Position numbers and translations under genes: made by a program
In this document: one piece after another, positions 7,691-53,323 of the stretch
Position numbering within the stretch: position 1 is the stretch's first letter
Layout of the letters: each line of letters begins with the position of its first letter
DNA from: Candidatus Saccharimonadales bacterium
GTDB taxonomy: Bacteria > Patescibacteriota > Saccharimonadia > Saccharimonadales > JBGSXW01
DNA: 64,000 nt
Assembly (NCBI GenBank): GCA_041751215.1
Contig: JBGSXW010000003.1
Coordinates: forward strand, 19,613 to 83,612
Reading direction: 5' to 3'
Notes under the pieces: model-generated
The model's input: only the letters and a program-made list of their open reading frames with translations
Databases searched by the model: none
What the model was told of the DNA's origin: nothing

Positions 7691-10600
7691 ATGTCAGACA
7701 CCAAACCAGCCAAAGACCGTTCAGTATTTGCTCAACGCGAAGAGCAAATACTTGATGTGTGGAACAAGGAAAGCACCTTTGCCGAGTCGCTCAAACAGCG
7801 CGAAGGCAAGGACGTCTTTACCTTTTACGATGGCCCGCCGTTTGCCAACGGCCTGCCGCATTTTGGTCACACCCTGGTAACCAGCATTAAAGACTCAGTC
7901 GGCCGCTATAAAACCATGCGCGGTTATTATGTCGAGCGCAAAAACGGCTGGGACTGTCACGGCTTACCAGTAGAGTTTGCGATCGAAAAACAGTTTGGCG
8001 TTAGTGGTAAAAAACAAATTCTTGATCTTGGACTAGATAAGTTTAACGCTGCCTGCCGCGAGTCGGTGTTTATGTACAAGTCAGAGTGGGAGCAGTTTTT
8101 TGCCCGCGCCGGACGCTGGACCGACACCGAGAACGCTTACGCCACCATTGATACCAACTACACCGAAAGTGTTTGGTGGACGCTGTCACAAATCCATAAA
8201 AAGAACCTACTTTACCGTGGTTTTAAGAGCATGCCGTACTGCCCACGCTGCGAAACCCCACTTAGCAACTTTGAGGTAAACGAAGGCTACCGAGATAACG
8301 TTCCCGACCCTAGTTTGTTCATGAAATTTAAGCTTATCGAAGATCAGGAAGTAGCAAATACATCTGAAGCGAGTGGGATGCAAGGCGCTGGCGAGCAGCG
8401 GACGGAAGCGTACACAACGTCCGATGAAGGAGCAGCGGAGCCAGCAACGCAGCAGCGCGCCGAAGGCAGCAGAGTCAGCGTCTCTGGCGCTGAGCAGGCT
8501 GCCGGTTCAGTGTATTTGCTGGGCTGGACTACAACCCCTTGGAGCCTCCCAGGCAACGCCGCCGTTGCTGTGAATCCGCAGGCAATTTACGTCTACGCCC
8601 AAGTTGGCGACGATGTTCTTATTATGGCCAAGGAGTTAGTCGAAAAAGTCCTCAAAAACGAAGAATCCTATCATATACAGCAAGAGGTTAAGGGGAGCGA
8701 GCTAGTTGGTAAATCGTACGAGCCGTTGTTTGATCTGGGTGAAAAGACTTCAAACAACGACAAAATGTACAAAGTTTGGCCCGCAAACTTCGTTAGCGTA
8801 GAGGACGGCACCGGTGTTTTGCACGTGGCGCCAGCCTTTGGAGAAGACGACCTGAGCCTCGGCCAACAAGAAGGGTTAGATGTTCTGACAACCGTTGATC
8901 CGAGCGGTCATATCGACGCCGGAACCGGCCTAGAGGGGATTGAAGGACTTTTCTTCAAAGACGCCGATCGCCCAATCATCAAGCACCTGACCGAAAAAGG
9001 CGCTGTGTTTGTAGCCCAAACTTATTCGCACACCTATCCGTTTTGTTACCGCTGCGACAGTCCGCTGCTTTATTATGCGATATCGACTTGGTTCATTCGG
9101 GTTTCAGAGATCAAGGACCAACTGCTTAAAACAGCCGAAGACATTGAATGGACCCCAGCTCACATCAAGCAAGGGCGTTTTGGCAAGTGGCTAGAGGGCG
9201 CGCGCGACTGGGCGATTAGCCGCAATCGTTATTGGGGAGCACCAATGCCGATCTGGCAAAATGTCGACGACCCAGAGGATTACATCGTCGTTGGCAGTAT
9301 TGAGGAGCTCAAAGACCTCGCCGGAGCCGACACTAAGCTCGATGATCTTCACCGTCCGTTTATCGATGAAGTAACGTTTGAAAAGGACGGCAAAACCTAT
9401 AAGCGCATCGAAGAAGTGCTCGATTGCTGGTTTGAGTCGGGTTCGATGCCGGTTGCTCAGCGCCATTATCCGTTCGAGAACAAAGACGACTTTGAAAAGT
9501 TCTTCCCGGCTGATTACATCGGTGAGGGGCTAGATCAAACTCGTCTGTGGTTTTACGTGCAGCACGTAATTGCGACCATTCTGTTCGATAAACCAGCTTA
9601 CAGGCACGTGATTGTAAACGGCATGATCAACGCCGCCGACGGAGCAAAACTCAGCAAACGCCTCAAGAACTATCCACCAGTTGAGGATGTGTTCGCCCAG
9701 GAAGGTGCCGATACTCTGCGACTTTATTTGTTATCTAACTATCAAGCGACCGCCAATGCTGGCTACATGCGTTTTGATCGCGGTGCCATGAAAGATCTTA
9801 ACCGAAACATTATTGGAACACTTGAGAATTCGCATAAGTTCTTCTCGATGTACGCCCTAATCGATAAGTGGCAGCCTAAAGCACCCGGCCAGGAGCCAAA
9901 AGTCAGCCACGTATTAGATAAATGGCTGATTGCTCGACTCAACGAGACCATTAAGACTACCACCGAAGCCGCCGATGACTTTGAGATTGCTCGAGCCATC
10001 AATCCAGTCTTTGAGCTAATCGAGGATATGTCCAATTGGTATATTCGTCGCTCGCGCCGACGGTTCTGGAAGAGCGAGGACGACACCGATAAGCTTGAAG
10101 CCTATGAAACGCTTTGGTACTCGCTTTACCGGCTAAGTCAGCTACTTGCTCCTTGGGCGCCGTTTGCCACCGATCATTTGTGGAGAGAGTTAGTTGCTGG
10201 CACCGATCTGCCTAAATCTGTGCATCTAAGTGATTGGCCAGAAGGCGGGGCAGTCGATGAAGCTTTGATCGAAGAAATGAAAACTACTCGCGCAGTGATT
10301 AACGATGTTTTGCGCCAACGAGCCCAGGTCGGAATTAAAGTTCGCCAACCGTTACTAGAGGTTAAGTTAGGCAAGCAGCACAGTGTCAGCCAAGAGCTAA
10401 TAGACATCATCGCCGAGGAAGCCAACATTAAAAAAGTAACAATTGATAGCAGTGCAGCCGATGATAACGTTGAATTGAATACAACAATAACCGACGAGCT
10501 TAAACTCGAGGGAGTCATGCGCGACGTTGTAAGATTTGCTCAAGCTGCACGCAAACACGCCGGACTAGATGTTGAGAATCGCATCCTGCTGAGTCTTGCT

Positions 10601-28811: not shown

Positions 28812-29258
28812 CTAACTTTCTTTAGGAGTTTCAGCTTCAGCTGCAGGCTTCTCAGCCTCAACCTTAGCACCGCGCATTTTTGGATCTTCGCGAACAATCT
28901 TAGATTTTGCCACTGGTGCACCAATCTTTTGAACTTCTTTTCCAGATTCGCCGCGGGCAGCCTTACGGTTAGCAGATTTCTTAGCCTTAGCAGCCGCTGA
29001 CTTGCGTCGTTCCTCGGCTTGCTGAGCTTGTTTCTTGAAGCGATCAACTCGTCCTTCGACGTCGACAATCTTTTCTTCGCCGGTGTAAAACGGGTGAGAA
29101 GCGCTAGAGATGTGTACAGATACTAACGGATATTCGGTTCCATCAAGAGTGATAGTTTCTTTAGTTTTTACGGTAGAGCGTGTCAAAAAAGTGGCGTCGT
29201 TATTGACGTCTTTAAACACGACTGGGCGGTAGTTGTCTGGGTGTAAGTCTTTCTTCAT
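28812..29258 (-). CDS. rpmE: 50S ribosomal protein L31 (type B, no Cys motif) with ~65-aa Lys/Ala-rich C-terminal extension
   Basis: [17 protein letters not shown]....[26 protein letters not shown], then ..[16 protein letters not shown]... Confidence 0.9.
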
Positions 29259-29269
29259 TGCAAGGAGCG

Positions 29270-29298
29270 AGTATACACATCTGATAGACAGAGGTCAA
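29270..29298 (-). promoter_or_regulatory. Candidate rpmE promoter
   Basis: The minus strand reads TTGACC, 17-nt spacer, TATACT, then 11 nt to the ATG. Confidence 0.4.
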
Positions 29299-29358
29299 GC
29301 TTCTTTATGCTCGGACAGCGCTATGAGCGACCGATAACCATAGTTACTAGTCAATGGG

Positions 29359-29387
29359 TTTACAGAAACACGCTAACGTTATATAAT
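29359..29387 (+). promoter_or_regulatory. Strong candidate promoter reading into the GC-rich cassette
   Basis: TTTACA (29359-29364), 17-nt spacer, TATAAT (29382-29387). Confidence 0.5.
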
Positions 29388-29406
29388 AGTCCGGTCCAGA
29401 TTGGAC

Positions 29407-29419
29407 TAGAGGGAAGACT
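29407..29419 (+). repeat. Left arm of perfect 13-bp inverted repeat
   Basis: TAGAGGGAAGACT. Its reverse complement occurs at 29883-29895. Extension AGAGA/GGTG (to 29432) pairs imperfectly with 29867-29880. Confidence 0.8.
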
Positions 29420-29438
29420 ATCAGAGAGGGTGAGTTAG

Positions 29439-29816
29439 TTGGACACAATCCAACAATCAGAAGCAACGATCCAGGAGCGTCTCGACAAGCTCCGAGAGAA
29501 CGGCCACCTGCGCCACTACCACCACACGTGGAGAACGAGGCAGGCCAGTCGGCTCATCGAGGAGCTCAGCGGGATCCGGAAGCGGATCGGCGAAGAGGCG
29601 TTCGAGGAGTTCCTCCAGCTCGAGGTCCACTCGAATGACCTGCCGAGCATCGAAGGCACTTCGCTGTTCGAAGGCGACCTCGATGTTCTGCTGTCCGCCT
29701 GGTGGCTGCTCCACGAGATCGTGACGCGAGAGGTGCAGGCCAATCCCGACGACCACCCAGACGGCATGATCGTCGACATCCGGACCATCGTCCACAGCCT
29801 GCCCGCCGCGGCCTGA
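29439..29816 (+). CDS. Hypothetical 125-aa protein with foreign (high-GC) codon usage
   Basis: TTG start directly after an in-frame TAG, with GAGGGTGA 6 nt upstream. About 99 of the last 113 codons end in G/C by my count. The other open frames here lack that bias. Confidence 0.55.
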   Translation: MDTIQQSEATIQERLDKLRENGHLRHYHHTWRTRQASRLIEELSGIRKRIGEEAFEEFLQLEVHSNDLPSIEGTSLFEGDLDVLLSAWWLLHEIVTREVQANPDDHPDGMIVDIRTIVHSLPAAA

Positions 29817-29824
29817 TCGATCCT

Positions 29825-29867
29825 GGCTGTGGGGGAGCAATACGGTTCACTCCGTACCCCCACAGCC
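29825..29867 (+). terminator. Long nested hairpin after the cassette ORF
   Basis: GGCTGTGGGGG-AGCAA-TACGG-TTCACT-CCGTA-CCCCCACAGCC. No U-tract. Confidence 0.45.
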
Positions 29868-29882
29868 ACCGATCATCTCTAC

Positions 29883-29895
29883 AGTCTTCCCTCTA
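29883..29895 (-). repeat. Right arm of perfect 13-bp inverted repeat
   Basis: AGTCTTCCCTCTA is the reverse complement of 29407-29419. Confidence 0.8.
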
Positions 29896-30053
29896 AACAA
29901 CCTTGTGTGGCAAGTTGAGCTATATTTAAAGAACTTTTAATTACTCAGCTTGCTATAGAATTTTGCCAATGCTAATAGAACCAGCCTTACTACCAGTCAA
30001 ACTAAGCCAGATTTTGCTTGACCAGCCAAGCAGGATTGAGATAGGTTGAGCGG

Positions 30054-30716
30054 ATGGCTAGTGGCGGTTCATATGAGCGAGGAATTGATTATCTTAACGG
30101 GGAGAGTCGTAGGGTCTTAGACAAAGCAGTCTCAGGAGCGGCTTTAGTTGCTGGCGCGCTGCCTATAGCTGTGGCTGCAACCATCTCGGCCCGAGAGCAC
30201 GGTCTTCGCAACGTGCTATTTACTCAGAAGCGAGTCTGGGGCCCAGATCCTAACTTTGCTATAACCAAGTTCCGAACCCTTCCTCCAGAGATTAACGGTG
30301 GTGTTTATCGATTGTGTGATCCGCGGGCATCAAAAGCCGCTAACTTTATGCGTCGAACCGGCATGGACGAGCTGCCACAGTTGCTTGATGTCTGGCGAGG
30401 ATCAATGACCACGCTAGGGATAAGAACAGTCCTGCAAACACATTTAGATGATCGGAATAGCGCCGACCCGTCGTTGTTTGCCGACTGGTATCATGCTCAA
30501 CAAAGCACAAAACCATCGTTAACTGGCGCCGGGGCGCTTTGGTATCATGACGCCGATCCAGACCCCTCAGACCCAGACAGTGTTCTTATTAATGTTATGA
30601 AGCTTGATCTTGAGTACATAGAAACCGCTTCGCTCGATACCGACCTAAAGTTTTTAGCGAGCATTCCTGGAACCATTGGCTCAATAGCAATCGACTACCT
30701 AAAACAAGAAGGCTAG
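30054..30716 (+). CDS. Divergent bacterial sugar transferase family protein (polyprenyl-phosphate glycosyl-1-phosphate transferase-like)
   Basis: RRVLDKAVSGAALVAGALPI.., then ..FTQKRVWGPDPNFAITKFRTL.. and ..RRTGMDELPQLLDVWRGSMTTLG... This matches the family pattern R.lD..(TM)..Q.RvG..g..F...KFRTM...lDELPQl.NVl.G.MS.vG. Confidence 0.7.
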   Translation: MASGGSYERGIDYLNGESRRVLDKAVSGAALVAGALPIAVAATISAREHGLRNVLFTQKRVWGPDPNFAITKFRTLPPEINGGVYRLCDPRASKAANFMRRTGMDELPQLLDVWRGSMTTLGIRTVLQTHLDDRNSADPSLFADWYHAQQSTKPSLTGAGALWYHDADPDPSDPDSVLINVMKLDLEYIETASLDTDLKFLASIPGTIGSIAIDYLKQEG

Positions 30717-40086: not shown

Positions 40087-41331
40087 ATGAGACTCTCGAA
40101 ACTATTTACTAAAACCAGAAAAGACGCACCATCGGATGAAGCGGCCAAGAATGCTCAGCTTCTAATTAAAGCCGGATATATTCACAAGGAAATGGCCGGC
40201 GTTTACAGCTACTTGCCACTAGGACTGAATGTTTTAAACAAGATCTCAGATATCGTTCGCGAAGAAATGAACGAAGTCGATGGTCAAGAAATCCTGATGA
40301 CCGCACTACAGCTAAAAGAGCGCTACGAAGCTACGAATCGCTGGGATGACGCCGTGGTCGACAACTGGTTTAAGACCAAACTCGCTAACGGGCAAGAGTT
40401 AGGCTTGGGTTTTTCACACGAGGAAAATCTATCGCCGATTGTTAAACAATACGCGCATTCCTACAAAGACTTTCCGGTGTCGATTTATCAGATTCAGACA
40501 AAATTCAGAAACGAGCTTCGGAGCAAGAGCGGGTTGATGCGCGGCCGCGAGTTCTTAATGAAGGACATGTACTCGTACTCTTTATCTCAGGAGCAGCACG
40601 ACGAATACTACGAGCGAGTCAAAGCGGCTTATCTTAAGGTTTATGACCGACTAGGAATTGGCGACAAAACTTTTGTGACGTTTGCCAGCGGAGGCAGTTT
40701 TAGTAAATACAGCCATGAATTTCAGACACTCTCTGAGGCTGGCGAGGACATTATTTACTTGGACCGTCAGAAAAAGCTAGCGATCAACAAAGAAGTTTAC
40801 AACGATGAGACCATTGCCGAGCTCGGCGTTAAAAAGGAAGAACTCGAAGAAGTAAAAGGTATTGAAGTCGGAAATATCTTTAGTCTTGGCACTAAGTTTT
40901 CAGAGCCATTTGACGTTAGCGTGACCAACGAACAAGGCGAAAGCCTAACTGCCATTATGGGCTGCTACGGCATCGGCATTAGCCGACTCATGGGCACTGT
41001 CGCTGAACTTATGAGCGACGACAAAGGACTAGTTTGGCCAAAGAACATCGCACCAGCTCAAGTTTACCTAGTAAGGCTAGGGGATGATGAAAAAGTTGTG
41101 GCACAAGCCGACAAGCTCTACGCTGATCTTAAGAGCGCTGGCTTAGAAGTGCTTTACGATGACCGAGATCGCCGCGCCGGCGAGAAGTTTGCCGATGCTG
41201 ACCTTACCGGCATACCACTAAGAGTTGTGGTTAGTGATCGAACCGAAGGTGATAACTTTGAGTCAAAGGCTCGAAACAGCGACGAGACAGAAAATCTTAC
41301 TTTGGCTCAAATCGTAGAGCGCTCTAAGTAG
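40087..41331 (+). CDS. proS: Prolyl-tRNA synthetase, short bacterial-type form lacking the INS editing domain
   Basis: MRLSKLFTKTRKDAPSDE..AQLLIKAGYI..GVYSYLPLG, RGREFLMKDMYSY (motif 2) and GCYGIGISRLMG (motif 3). Only ~45 aa lie where INS normally sits. Confidence 0.9.
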   Translation: MRLSKLFTKTRKDAPSDEAAKNAQLLIKAGYIHKEMAGVYSYLPLGLNVLNKISDIVREEMNEVDGQEILMTALQLKERYEATNRWDDAVVDNWFKTKLANGQELGLGFSHEENLSPIVKQYAHSYKDFPVSIYQIQTKFRNELRSKSGLMRGREFLMKDMYSYSLSQEQHDEYYERVKAAYLKVYDRLGIGDKTFVTFASGGSFSKYSHEFQTLSEAGEDIIYLDRQKKLAINKEVYNDETIAELGVKKEELEEVKGIEVGNIFSLGTKFSEPFDVSVTNEQGESLTAIMGCYGIGISRLMGTVAELMSDDKGLVWPKNIAPAQVYLVRLGDDEKVVAQADKLYADLKSAGLEVLYDDRDRRAGEKFADADLTGIPLRVVVSDRTEGDNFESKARNSDETENLTLAQIVERSK

Positions 41332-50004: not shown

Positions 50005-52602
50005 GTGAAAAAGACACTAACAAAAATCTTAGGGGATCCACAACGTAAGGTCGTTAAGCGGCTAGAGAAGCGTGTTAAAGAAGTTAATGACTTTGGCCCG
50101 AAGCTAGCCAAGTTAAGCGATGCTCAGCTTAAAAAGAAGACCGCCGAGTTTAAGGCCCGTCTAGAAAAGAAAGAAACTCTCGATGACATACTGCCCGAAG
50201 CTTTTGCTGTGGTTCGAGAAGCATCCGGGCGCACCATTGGCATGCGCCACTTTGACGTTCAGTTGGTGGGCGCAATGGCGTTGCATGACGGCAACGTAGC
50301 CGAGATGAAAACCGGCGAAGGCAAGACCTTGGTCGCAACGCTAGCGGTGTATCTAAATGCATTAACTGGCAAGGGCGTGCATGTGGTCACCGTCAACGAT
50401 TACTTGGCTCAGCGCGACGCCGGTTGGATGGCAGAAATTTATGATTTCTTGGGACTGAGCGTGGGCGTAGTCATACCAGAAAAGACCTTTATTTATGACG
50501 CAAAGTTTAACAACAGCGATCATGAGGATCCTAGGTTTAAGCACCTTCGACCGGCCGAAACCCGCCGCGAAGCTTATGACGCCGATGTCACGTATGGAAC
50601 AAACAACGAGTTTGGCTTTGACTATCTGCGCGACAACATGGTTAGAGAGCTAAGCCAGCTTAGACAGCGCGAATTAAACTTTGCAATCGTAGACGAAGTC
50701 GACTCGATCTTGGTAGACGAGGCCCGAACTCCGCTAATTATTTCTGCCGCTGCATCAAATAGCGGCAGTAGCTACAGCACTTTCGCTCAAATCGCTCGTC
50801 GACTAACGCCAGACGATTACGAAAAGGACGAAAAACGTCGTAGCGTCGGACTCAAAGATGAGGGTGTTGAAAAAGTCGAGAAGTGGCTCGGCGTAAAAAA
50901 CCTTTACGCACCAGAAAACGTCCGAATGATTTATCACATGGATCAAGCACTGCGCGCCGAAACACTGTTTAAGCGAGACAAAGACTACGTGGTTAACGAA
51001 GGCGGCGAAGTGGTTATTGTCGATGAGTTTACCGGTCGTTTGATGCCTGGTCGTCGCTATAACGAAGGATTACACCAGGCAATCGAAGCCAAGGAAGGCG
51101 TTGAGGTTCTGCAAGAATCTATGACGCTCGCCACCATTAGTTTTCAGAACTACTTTAGGCTCTATAAAAAGCTTTCTGGCATGACCGGTACTGCCAAAAC
51201 CGAAGAAGAAGAGTTTCAGCAAATCTACGACCTCGATGTTATTGAAATTCCTACCAACATGCCAATCGCCCGAGAAGATCGAGGAGACAAGATCTTTAAG
51301 TCGGAAGCCGGCAAATTTAAAGCCATCGTAGCGCAGGTCAAAGAACTGCAAGAAAAGGGACAACCAGTTCTAATCGGTACAGCCTCAATTCAAAAGAACG
51401 AAGTTCTCTCTGAGCTACTCAGTAAGTCGGGCGTGCCCCACAAAGTTCTAAACGCCAAAAACAACGAGGGCGAGGCAGCGATTGTTGCAAAGGCCGGGCA
51501 AAAGGGTGCAGTTACGCTAGCTACCAACATTGCCGGTCGTGGTACCGACATTGTCTTAGGCAAGGGCATAACTGACCTGGGCGGATTATACGTTTTGGGC
51601 TCAGAGCGACACGAAGCGCGGCGAATCGACAACCAGCTGCGCGGCCGCGCCGGACGTCAGGGCGATCCCGGTGTCACGCAGTTTTTTGTATCCGCCGAAG
51701 ACGACCTAATGCGAATCTTTGGTGGTGAACGAATTGCTTCAGTAATGAATCGGCTCGGAGTCGGGGATGATGAACCAATCGAGAACCGCACCCTTTCAAA
51801 AGCCCTAGAAACTGCCCAGAAAAAGGTCGAGGATCATAACTTTGATTCCCGTAAGCACGTTGTTCAGTACGACGATGTTATGAACCGTCACCGCAAGGCT
51901 ACATACACCTTGCGTCGCCAAATCCTAGAAAGCAAAGATATTTCCGAGAAAGTAACCCAGCTAATAGAAAATCAAGTTCAGGCCTTTGCACCGAAGCCAG
52001 ATGAAAAAATAGCTGATTTAGTCAACGATGCCAACGTGGTATTTCATTTTGATGACACCGCAAAGCGCAGCTTAAAAAAGGCCAATATCGAAAACTTCTC
52101 AGAGCTTTTAGCTAAGCAAGTAAAGCGACTGCGGTCTGCTAAAACTGAGGAATTTGGCAAGGATATGATGCTTCAAGTTGAGCGCGAAATTCACCTGCAA
52201 ATACTCGACAACTTATGGATGCAACATCTAGAAAATATGGATCACCTGCGCGAAGGCATTAACTGGCGCTCGGTTGGACAAAAGGATCCTCTGGTTGAAT
52301 ACCGCCGGGATGGTCAGCAGTTGTTTGAACAAATGCAGGCTGGCTTAGAAATTGAGGTGGTGCGCGCCTTATTCCACGCCGAGCTTAGACGCGAAGTTGA
52401 GCCCGATGAGCCGATTGAGACGGAACTAACCAGAGCAGCGCGGAGTTCGATCGAACAGTCTGATACCTCACAGAGTGGCTCAAGTAGCAAAGCGAGCGAA
52501 TCTCGATCTTCGGCTAGCAAAGCCAAGCCTGCCGGTAAGCACACTGATGCTCGCAAAAAGAAGAAACAGCAACGAAAAAACCGCAAAAAAAATCGAAACT
52601 AG
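50005..52602 (+). CDS. secA: Preprotein translocase ATPase SecA
   Basis: MKTGEGKTLVATL, DEVDSILVDEARTPLIIS and TNIAGRGTDI. GTG start after AGGGAG. Basic C-terminal tail. Confidence 0.97.
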   Translation: MKKTLTKILGDPQRKVVKRLEKRVKEVNDFGPKLAKLSDAQLKKKTAEFKARLEKKETLDDILPEAFAVVREASGRTIGMRHFDVQLVGAMALHDGNVAEMKTGEGKTLVATLAVYLNALTGKGVHVVTVNDYLAQRDAGWMAEIYDFLGLSVGVVIPEKTFIYDAKFNNSDHEDPRFKHLRPAETRREAYDADVTYGTNNEFGFDYLRDNMVRELSQLRQRELNFAIVDEVDSILVDEARTPLIISAAASNSGSSYSTFAQIARRLTPDDYEKDEKRRSVGLKDEGVEKVEKWLGVKNLYAPENVRMIYHMDQALRAETLFKRDKDYVVNEGGEVVIVDEFTGRLMPGRRYNEGLHQAIEAKEGVEVLQESMTLATISFQNYFRLYKKLSGMTGTAKTEEEEFQQIYDLDVIEIPTNMPIAREDRGDKIFKSEAGKFKAIVAQVKELQEKGQPVLIGTASIQKNEVLSELLSKSGVPHKVLNAKNNEGEAAIVAKAGQKGAVTLATNIAGRGTDIVLGKGITDLGGLYVLGSERHEARRIDNQLRGRAGRQGDPGVTQFFVSAEDDLMRIFGGERIASVMNRLGVGDDEPIENRTLSKALETAQKKVEDHNFDSRKHVVQYDDVMNRHRKATYTLRRQILESKDISEKVTQLIENQVQAFAPKPDEKIADLVNDANVVFHFDDTAKRSLKKANIENFSELLAKQVKRLRSAKTEEFGKDMMLQVEREIHLQILDNLWMQHLENMDHLREGINWRSVGQKDPLVEYRRDGQQLFEQMQAGLEIEVVRALFHAELRREVEPDEPIETELTRAARSSIEQSDTSQSGSSSKASESRSSASKAKPAGKHTDARKKKKQQRKNRKKNRN

Positions 52603-52711: not shown

Positions 52712-53323
52712 ATGCCACCAAGCAATCCACAAGATCCAAGTCAAACACCGGCCGAGCCGGTCGGCATGCCACCAGCAGCCGATGAGCCAGTAGCGCCGGT
52801 CGAACCGCCTACTGAAGAAGCTAACAATGATGTATCGGCACCAGATCCGATGCCGCCAATGAGCACCGATGCGCCAGCCGATCCGGTTGTGCCCGCTCCA
52901 GAAGTAGCAGCACCAGATTTGGGTGTTGGTGACGATAATCCAGTGCCGAGCCCTGCTCCAATGCCGGGTGTTGATGAAACACCAGCAAACGGAGAGGGCG
53001 ATAGTCAAGGCGATGACACTACACCTCCAGCCATGCCTCCTGCAGATGGGGGTGGTTTTGGTGGCGATAGCACAAATCCGCCAGCCGGCGGTGGTATGAA
53101 TGACGGGGCAGCAGCCCCGTCGTCAATCCCTTCTGGCGACGTTCCAGCAGTTGGTATGGTTGGCGCTACGACGCCAGTCGCACCAAATGTTGGAGCAGCT
53201 GTTAGCTCTGGAATGCAGGACATGCAATCTAGCGGACCTAATGTGTCTAAAATAGTTATGATTGTTGGTTTTGTCTTTGGCTTTATAGCTATTGCTGCAG
53301 CCGGAGCCTTTCTTTTAGCCTAG
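52712..53323 (+). CDS. Hypothetical Pro/Ala/Asp-rich tail-anchored membrane protein
   Basis: SD AAAAGGGG. About 175 aa of low-complexity PxxP/acidic sequence, then a single C-terminal TM IVMIVGFVFGFIAIAAAGAFLLA. Confidence 0.6.
   Translation: MPPSNPQDPSQTPAEPVGMPPAADEPVAPVEPPTEEANNDVSAPDPMPPMSTDAPADPVVPAPEVAAPDLGVGDDNPVPSPAPMPGVDETPANGEGDSQGDDTTPPAMPPADGGGFGGDSTNPPAGGGMNDGAAAPSSIPSGDVPAVGMVGATTPVAPNVGAAVSSGMQDMQSSGPNVSKIVMIVGFVFGFIAIAAAGAFLLA

Follow-up and report, generated by a model that had tools for sequence, protein, structure and literature searches.

What is a short island of DNA with the codon usage of a high-GC (guanine plus cytosine) genome doing between rpmE and a sugar-transferase gene of a reduced-genome bacterium? 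The question is raised by a stretch of 64,000 nucleotides from Candidatus Saccharimonadales bacterium, of the phylum Patescibacteriota in the candidate phyla radiation (CPR). The stretch (contig JBGSXW010000003.1 of assembly GCA_041751215.1, positions 19,613 to 83,612) is referred to here as the window. The island carries an open reading frame (ORF) at 29439-29816 on the plus strand, and an earlier note on this DNA had taken it for a recently captured cassette, mobile or horizontally transferred, bracketed by a 13-bp inverted repeat. The explanation that we favour, with a probability of about one half, is that the island is a clade-restricted, fast-evolving orphan gene, probably of foreign origin. 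It would have been gained once, long ago, and would have kept its frame and its expression signals since then, and the untranslated regions (UTRs) of its messenger RNA are predicted to pair. The island is a lineage-specific ORFan or islet and not a new kind of system.

Composition and coding frame of the island

Three features define the island and its surroundings.

29439-29816, plus strand: orphan protein-coding gene, 125 amino acids (aa), isoelectric point 5.0, predicted helical
29471-29871, no strand: GC-rich core of 401 bp and 64.3% GC, which scores highest among the GC segments in the window
29898-30053, plus strand: AT-rich spacer, 40% GC, preceding the sugar-transferase gene and part of the stretch of about 700 bp that is missing from the empty site described below

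The window averages 48.4% GC, with a standard deviation (sd) of 3.1% in 400-bp windows over the 64 kb. The GC-rich core extends from 11 codons inside the ORF to the foot of a 3' hairpin. At the first, second and third codon positions the GC fraction of the ORF (GC1, GC2 and GC3) is 0.67, 0.37 and 0.83, and its GC3 stands about 10 sd above that of the remaining 54 long ORFs of the window (0.473 +/- 0.036, maximum 0.54). At two-fold pyrimidine-ending codons the share of C is 0.91 versus 0.46 elsewhere (maximum 0.65). The choice of codons is of the high-GC type throughout (Ile 10/10 ATC, Leu 15/16 CTC or CTG, Asp 8/9 GAC, His 8/8 CAC). With a GC3 of 0.83 versus 0.473 and with the window's top GC segment as its core, the island is atypical of the resident genome in the way that islets are. 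The earlier note had reached this contrast by hand, and its five counts of G+C (39/60, 37/60 and 40/60 inside, 30/60 and 23/60 in the flanks) proved exact on recount, as did its 99 G/C-ending codons among the last 113. Its statement that the codon usage is unlike that of every other gene here is borne out by the maximum of 0.54 among the 54 window ORFs. Further local GC-rich stretches are found in the window at 52748-53184 (60.6%), 8369-8583 (65%) and 51597-51679 (72%). The ORF at 52712-53323 (GC1 0.72, GC2 0.58, GC3 0.37) owes its pattern to amino-acid composition and not to codon bias, unlike the island.

The island has four open frames. The earlier note had remarked that almost every frame is open here, which in its view accounts for four shadow ORFs. 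Open antisense frames are expected because G/C-ending sense codons avoid TTA, CTA and TCA, which read as stops on the opposite strand. Public gene calls have been placed on the direct antisense frame, both by NCBI (127 aa, window 29457-29840, minus strand) and by Logan (112 aa, L082 3404-3742, minus strand). The public call in the sister lineage L083 (SRR27710318, contig SRR27710318_10351) is likewise antisense (L083 2-412, plus strand). Since the NCBI and Logan calls take the antisense strand, the actual 125-aa product is missing from protein collections.

The plus-strand frame is the genuine coding frame. In both orthologues GC3 exceeds GC1 and GC1 exceeds GC2 on the plus strand, and the antisense frame would need a GC1 of 0.84. 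When the window and L083 are aligned in all six frames, the plus frame gives the best score (101), with 85 for the direct antisense frame and 27.6 +/- 4.9 for shuffled sequences. The two proteins find each other by BLASTP at an E value of 9e-10 over 117/125 residues (23% identity, 51% positives), and their similarity lies 15 sd above that of shuffled sequences. On the same strand L083 keeps the promoter hexamers, the Shine-Dalgarno (SD) sequence, the start and the stop position. Single-sequence AlphaFold2 models give five helices and a mean predicted local distance difference test score (pLDDT) of 50 for the sense product, and mostly coil with a pLDDT of 43 for the antisense product. This comparison of models weakly favours the sense product. 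The earlier claim that the plus frame is truly coding thus stands on the best cross-species score, the GC3 periodicity and the plus-strand signals kept in L083.

The 125-aa product is acidic and hydrophilic, with a grand average of hydropathy (GRAVY) of -0.49. We picture the locus as a stand-alone, taxonomically restricted plus-strand gene whose product would be an acidic, mostly helical cytoplasmic protein. A Foldseek search of the AlphaFold2 model against the PDB returned only matches with E > 3, which are meaningless. Metal binding, suggested by the His-richness of the window protein, was dropped since the His-richness is not conserved in L083.

An old gain upstream of rpmE

By its nearest named L31 homologue the organism is Saccharimonadales-like, in keeping with the earlier note. 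A Logan contig from SRR28170463 is identical to the window over 901/901 aligned bases. L083 is more distant, with an L31 83% identical and a prfA 87% identical to those of the window, and immediately upstream of its rpmE there is a homologous unit. There the ORF is co-linear with that of the window, has 122-125 codons and ends ...PAA followed by TGATCGA. Its GC1, GC2 and GC3 are 0.70, 0.42 and 0.81, and the island as a whole has 66% GC in a locus of 51% GC. The outgroup L085 (ERZ27247820), whose L31 is 72% identical to the window's, has an empty site in which the sugar-transferase start lies 88 bp from rpmE. L085 and the window are homologous from the rpmE leader as far as ACTAGTCAAT (window 29346-29355), and the homology resumes at the sugar-transferase ATG (30054). 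The indel relative to L085 is therefore about 700 bp long (about 29356-30053) and takes in the promoter and the 156-bp AT-rich spacer. That the window and L083 are sisters, with L085 outside, was judged from L31 and prfA nucleotide identity. No homologue of the unit was found in 80 JGI loci (L31 54-81% identical, as best-segment values) or in four others.

The distribution is thus patchy, with the unit present in the window and L083 and an empty orthologous site in L085, as is typical of islets. The simplest history would be a single gain, in the ancestor shared by the window and L083 lineages. From the phyletic pattern and the synonymous divergence, about 0.7 kb of DNA would have entered the spacer between rpmE and the sugar-transferase gene once, in that ancestor, after its split from L085. 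The earlier note had proposed a search for such an empty site, and the L085 locus provides it, which means that an insertion of the unit took place at some time.

The age of the gain can be judged from the rates of nonsynonymous (dN) and synonymous (dS) substitution, which all come from the comparison of the window with L083.

Island ORF: dN 0.885, dS 0.844, dN/dS about 1.05
L31: dN 0.125, dS 0.99, dN/dS 0.13
prfA: dN 0.082, dS 1.2, dN/dS 0.07
prmC: dN 0.19, dS about 1.8, dN/dS 0.11

In its dS the ORF resembles its neighbours (0.84 versus 1.0-1.8), which fits co-divergence with the genome and neither a recent arrival nor independent acquisition. Islets are also expected to have arrived recently, and here the orthologues already differ by a dS of 0.84 and a dN of 0.885. 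The gain would thus be old. The earlier note had called the unit recently captured and had named, as evidence to the contrary, an orthologue of the same composition in a relative. L083 holds just such an orthologue, with 66% GC, a GC3 of 0.81 and a dS of 0.84, and the claim of recency falls.

The same figures invite the view that the island is a decaying relic of foreign GC-rich DNA that encodes no functional protein and whose long ORFs are a by-product of GC-richness. A dN/dS of about 1.05, nucleotide identities near saturation at all three codon positions (0.43, 0.54 and 0.44), four open frames and the lack of either a homologue or a confident fold are all in keeping with it. Overall nucleotide identity between the two ORFs is 49%. 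We consider a relic unlikely, however, since both lineages have an intact, co-linear frame. In a substitution-only neutral simulation it stays open with a probability of 0.03-0.05 per lineage and of about 0.002 jointly, with frameshifts uncounted. Moreover, the promoter hexamers, leader, SD sequence, start-codon hairpin and stop region are 73-80% conserved versus 48% for neutral spacer. The 51% positives of the protein alignment far exceed those of shuffled sequences, and the GC3/GC2 periodicity is undiminished in both lineages. Because the frame is intact in both lineages and the signals are 73-80% conserved versus 48-49% for their surroundings, we take the ORF for a translated gene, with a sequence that is either under weak constraint or subject to diversifying selection, and not for a dead relic.

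Conserved ends around a saturated interior could also arise if each lineage had imported a different, divergent GC-rich allele from an external pool, with the conserved flanks serving as recombination anchors. Such recurrent allele replacement would account for the high GC3 of both copies and would go with the divergence of the adjacent sugar transferase, which has 49% identity where L31 has 72%. It is nonetheless distinctly improbable, as no member of the pool was seen in the databases searched and the dS of the ORF does not exceed the 1.0-1.8 of its neighbours, just as simple co-divergence predicts.

Since the gain, selection has preserved the frame, the near-consensus promoter, the structured leader, the SD sequence, the start-codon hairpin and the 3' stem-loop. 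The amino-acid sequence has meanwhile changed almost freely (dN/dS about 1). Judged solely by this tempo, which conflict or accessory proteins (immunity, anti-defence or host-interaction factors, for example) typically show, the protein may belong among them.

Expression signals and predicted pairing of the transcript ends

The signals that surround the ORF, all on the plus strand, are as follows (MFE, minimum free energy).

29359-29387: sigma-70-type promoter TTTACA-17-TATAAT, 11/12 consensus positions
29394-29406: 5'-leader hairpin GUCCA-GAU-UGGAC (or a palindromic operator), present in MFE and centroid folds
29407-29419: left arm of the inverted repeat, TAGAGGGAAGACT, in the 5' leader, pairing with 29883-29895 in the MFE fold
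29426-29433: SD sequence GAGGGTGA, 5 nt before the TTG start, as read from the sequence
29438-29454: local start-codon hairpin GUUGGA / UCCAAC, in the predicted fold
29814-29875: long 3' stem-loop that begins at the stop codon, no U-tract behind it, -37.6 kcal/mol, z -5.3
29876-29895: right arm of the inverted repeat, AGTCTTCCCTCTA, at 29883-29895, plus TCTCT at 29876-29880, which pairs with AGAGA at 29423-29427

The promoter of L083 has both hexamers and the 17-nt spacing identical, and its spacer sequence is different. In the leader hairpin the L083 stem is identical and the loop changes from GAU to AAU. The SD core GGTGA is kept in L083, and the SD sequence is unpaired in the MFE fold of the window transcript. 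A TAG is followed directly by the TTG start (29436-29441). The start codon lies in the local hairpin, where its predicted unpaired probability is 0.00-0.01 for all 3' ends tried, and the L083 stem (GUUGGC / GCCGAC) shows one compensatory change from A-U to C-G and one change from U-A to U-G. This hairpin would be the main gate on translation. The 3' stem-loop contains a 12-bp hairpin with arms at 29824-35 and 29857-68 and was not called a terminator by a consensus scan. TGATCGA at its foot is kept in L083, whose contig ends within the stem. Across the unit, identity between the window and L083 is 80% in the leader, 73-80% in the expression signals and 48-49% in the upstream spacer and the ORF body. 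The promoter, SD sequence, TTG start after an in-frame TAG and 3' hairpin described in the earlier note were all present on re-examination.

The transcript is predicted to be highly structured. Compared with dinucleotide shuffles, the full transcript folds with a z-score of -6.5 and the ORF by itself with one of -3.2, the partial transcript of L083 reaches -2.8, and the neighbouring mRNAs that served as controls give -0.08 (sugar transferase) and +1.27 (rpmE). Could RNA then be the primary product? A closed, structured GC-rich transcript, possibly of dual function, would explain these z-scores, the leader structures conserved with one compensatory pair, and a GC3 above the limit set by free amelioration, if RNA selection or GC-biased conversion keeps GC3 high. 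That the frame is translated is shown, however, by its strict three-base periodicity, by the conservation of start and stop and by the similarity of the amino-acid sequences, and the two orthologues, at 49% nucleotide identity, share no alignable internal structure. There is no Rfam match (nothing at E <= 1 on 3.5 kb), and neither tRNA genes nor Rfam families at the gathering threshold occur anywhere in the 64-kb window. We regard RNA as the primary product as rather unlikely.

The 13-nt inverted repeat is exact, at 29407-29419 and 29883-29895, as had been reported. Window-wide, two perfect 13-nt inverted repeats with arms 50-600 nt apart were observed versus 0.9 expected. The chance expectation for one with its arms in the leader and the 3' region of this unit is 4e-5. 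The other (40103-40115 / 40697-40709) lies inside the ORF 40087-41331 and is probably due to chance. Both arms of the island repeat lie outside the GC-rich core, where the sequence has about 41-43% GC. When 29393-29900 is folded in silico, the 13 perfect pairs are joined by 5 further end pairs (AGAGA/UCUCU) in both the MFE and the centroid structure. The end duplex has an energy of -31.0 kcal/mol versus -17.3 +/- 3.1 for shuffled 3' arms (z about -4.4). In L083 the left arm reads TTGAGGGAAGACT, with 12/13 positions conserved and a change from A to T at the second base.

On this predicted fold, the repeat is best read as pairing of the 5' UTR with the 3' UTR within one mRNA and not as transposon ends. 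It would call for read-through past the stem-loop to 29895, so that both arms lie on one transcript, and this is possible because the stem-loop has no U-tract. Once paired, the arms would close the mRNA into a compact, nuclease-resistant form. The earlier idea that the two ends pair, for which a co-fold had been proposed, is therefore in line with the predicted transcript fold, including AGAGA/UCUCU. Its corollary, that pairing could occlude initiation, is not. The SD sequence has a predicted unpaired probability of 0.54 when the 3' arm is present and of 0.36-0.39 when it is absent, so the 3' motif does not mask the SD, and it is the separate local hairpin that sequesters the start codon.

If the arms were instead the termini of a mobile element, the island would be a recent, non-autonomous cassette donated by a high-GC actinobacterium, as the earlier note had it. 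The sharply atypical composition, the perfect repeat that flanks the ORF and the empty site of L085 are what such a cassette would leave. Yet the repeat arms do not coincide with the ends of the insertion, since the indel at about 29356-30053 takes in the promoter and the 156-bp spacer beyond the repeat. The flanks (...GATTGGAC / TAGAGGG... and ...CCCTCTA / AACAACC...) contain no direct repeat, hence no target-site duplication. With up to 2 mismatches, the 13-mer occurs nowhere in the 64 kb beyond the two arms. It is absent from 80-83 related loci except for the orthologous L083 site, and neither it nor the leader pattern was found in IMG/VR. A blastn search of the island against the 64-kb window returned only the self-match. 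Within about 10 kb there is no transposase, integrase or reverse transcriptase, no homologue was found in the protein or DNA collections searched, and the sister lineage holds an orthologue of like composition at a dS of 0.84. Because the indel is not bounded by the repeat and there is no target-site duplication, no second copy and no nearby recombinase, the repeat is not a transposon terminus, and the mobile-cassette explanation is very improbable. The likeness to a miniature inverted-repeat transposable element (MITE) goes no further than the perfect 13-bp repeat with arms about 0.5 kb apart, as here the repeat sits off the insertion boundaries, is single-copy without target-site duplication, and has a left arm that is part of a selected leader. 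An integron cassette was rejected because the unit has its own conserved promoter, there is no integrase among the neighbours between 20 and 35 kb of the window, and the hairpin, inspected by eye, is without R''/R' GTTRRRY sites. A retron or a diversity-generating retroelement (DGR) was rejected because no reverse transcriptase is nearby.

The arms might also serve as sites at which a recombinase flips the intervening DNA and uncouples the ORF from a fixed promoter at 29359-29387. The arrangement would suit an inverton, in that the promoter lies just outside the left arm, the arms enclose the SD sequence, ORF and hairpin, and the antisense strand is open. The unit has, however, one and the same orientation in three independent assemblies (the window, L082 and L083), the nearest 10 kb or so contain no recombinase gene, and there is no sign that the antisense ORFs function. 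We give an inverton next to no chance.

Pairing between the two UTRs of one bacterial mRNA has precedents. In the B. subtilis hbs mRNA a long-range interaction of 14 bp that joins the 5' UTR to the 3' UTR modulates cleavage by RNase Y (PMC5737220). The island would share with hbs a short (about 0.4-0.5 kb), monocistronic, strongly expressed and highly structured mRNA, a 13-14-bp pairing between leader and 3' UTR, and a strong SD sequence. It differs in that its pairing is predicted, its right arm lies beyond a strong stem-loop that may terminate transcription, and the proteins are unrelated. In the S. aureus icaR mRNA, a UCCCCUG motif of the 3' UTR pairs with the SD region (PMC3868564). Here, too, a C-rich, anti-SD-like 3' motif, CUUCCCUCU, is predicted to pair with a purine-rich leader motif, AGAGGGAAG, of the same mRNA. 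Unlike in icaR, the paired leader motif of the island lies upstream of the functional SD sequence, which stays unpaired, and direct occlusion is not predicted. By analogy, then, the island would resemble hbs more than icaR. Type I toxin mRNAs of the hok/sok type are inhibited by fold-back. The island resembles them in its compact, very stable mRNA with ends that are predicted to pair and a start region held in local structure, and differs in its product, a soluble acidic protein of 125 aa and not a membrane peptide of about 50 aa. It also has no antisense promoter on the minus strand of 29200-30100, where the sole promoter-like site belongs to rpmE. If the UTR pairing is real, mRNA closure of the hbs/icaR type would extend to the Patescibacteria.

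Origin, persistent GC3 and neighbouring genes

Homology searches with the island were empty. Searches of Pfam, PHROGs, PADLOC and NCBIfam with both orthologues gave nothing significant. Profile matches to the PDB (E >= 0.1) involved an 'RLxxLexxG' helix of Lrp/AsnC regulators and were judged spurious, as a full helix-turn-helix domain would not fit. A word-indexed search of 5.8 billion proteins with the island product found no match. HMMER over 1.84 billion representative proteins found a single one, P0001, a tandem-repeat protein of 1032 aa that owes its score to 12 weak repeats added together, and this was set aside as an artefact. Nothing was found by blastn and by tblastn or six-frame searches of phage and plasmid DNA, nor by scans of IMG/VR and JGI metagenomes with the island protein. 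The product thus matches no family in Pfam, PHROGs, PADLOC, NCBIfam or the PDB, in keeping with the earlier note, which recognised none. Its proposal of a high-GC actinobacterial host as donor finds no support, there being no homologue in any collection searched. Protein databases may under-represent the family, as gene callers take the antisense strand, and antisense calls blind homology searches for such genes. The simplest inference is that the island is probably of foreign, high-GC origin, because codons are used in its GC-rich core as they are in a high-GC genome. Taken as a whole, the earlier note was right about a real gene with foreign-like codons, an insertion relative to an empty site and a plausible pairing of the ends. 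It was wrong about a recent, repeat-bounded mobile unit, its actinobacterial donor is unsupported, and occlusion of the SD sequence is not predicted.

Several observations weigh against the favoured explanation. Only two orthologues exist, and a dN/dS near 1 is equally expected of a non-functional relic. Neither a structure nor a function could be assigned to the product, with an AlphaFold2 pLDDT of 50 and empty fold and profile searches. Among 1.84 billion representative proteins there is no donor or homologue, so the argument for a foreign origin is one of composition alone. The right arm falls outside the L083 sequence, whose contig ends in the 3' hairpin, and the pairing is thus a prediction for the window transcript. 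A right arm reading AGTCTTCCCTCAA in L083 would be a compensating change and would support selected pairing in RNA or DNA. The 3' hairpin may also terminate transcription ahead of the right arm, in which case the two arms would never be in one RNA. Lastly, both lineages hold a GC3 of 0.81-0.83 (binomial standard error about 0.034), which is above what free amelioration allows.

The amelioration framework of Lawrence and Ochman deals with horizontally acquired ORFan genes and islets of atypical composition. The island is like them in its atypical composition, narrow clade, empty outgroup site, lack of homologues and fast protein evolution. It differs in being old (dS about 0.84) with GC3 undecayed, in having no detected donor, and in carrying a conserved, near-consensus promoter of the resident type and a conserved leader. 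A third-position identity of 0.44 corresponds to about 0.5 substitutions per site per lineage, if positions drift freely toward the genome GC3 of about 0.48. On this model GC3 should be at most 0.72 even for a donor GC3 of 1.0, and the dS of the neighbours predicts 0.62-0.72. Because the GC3 of 0.81-0.83 exceeds this limit, a single old transfer followed by plain amelioration is a strained account, and GC3 appears to be kept high by some factor. Translational selection in favour of codons ending in C was rejected as the cause, since rpmE has a GC3 of 0.40 and only 0.59 C at its two-fold pyrimidine-ending codons, and the island is also rich in G-ending codons. Candidates are selection on RNA structure and GC-biased conversion.

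This leads us to a more speculative proposal, which we hold tentatively, that the island is a compositionally insulated gene. A directional force would have held its GC3 at about 82% in a 48% GC genome through the divergence of both lineages, while the protein was almost wholly turned over. Either selection in favour of a closed, hyper-structured mRNA or GC-biased conversion at a surface-polysaccharide locus prone to recombination could supply this force. An atypical composition would then mark unusual constraint rather than recent horizontal transfer, and the RNA architecture (5' hairpin, end pairing, start-codon hairpin and long 3' stem) would be selected as much as the protein. Whether or not the gene is insulated, a sharp GC and GC3 island need not signal recent transfer, as this one persists in a sister lineage at saturating divergence. 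The locus also offers a lineage-specific orphan gene of a CPR bacterium whose gain can be placed on the tree by the empty site of an outgroup.

The neighbourhood shows some peculiarities of its own. In another Saccharimonadales contig an IS30-like transposase of 319 aa (L135 641-1600, minus strand) lies immediately upstream of rpmE, and in most of the distant-relative loci examined rpsB-tsf-frr (also given as rpsB-tsf-frr-uppS) occupies this place. The spacer upstream of rpmE is therefore a recurrent insertion and synteny break point. The Bac_transf sugar transferase (30054-30716, plus strand) is unusually divergent, with 49% identity to its L085 orthologue versus 72% for L31. It has no relative above 34% identity in 185,579 GTDB species genomes, those found being in unrelated phyla, and a search of 5.8 billion proteins at E <= 1e-20 returned only itself. 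The L31 protein of the window (28812-29258, minus strand) is of the cysteine-less type B and carries a lysine/alanine-rich C-terminal extension of about 70 aa, the length of which varies among relatives (proteins of 104-182 aa).

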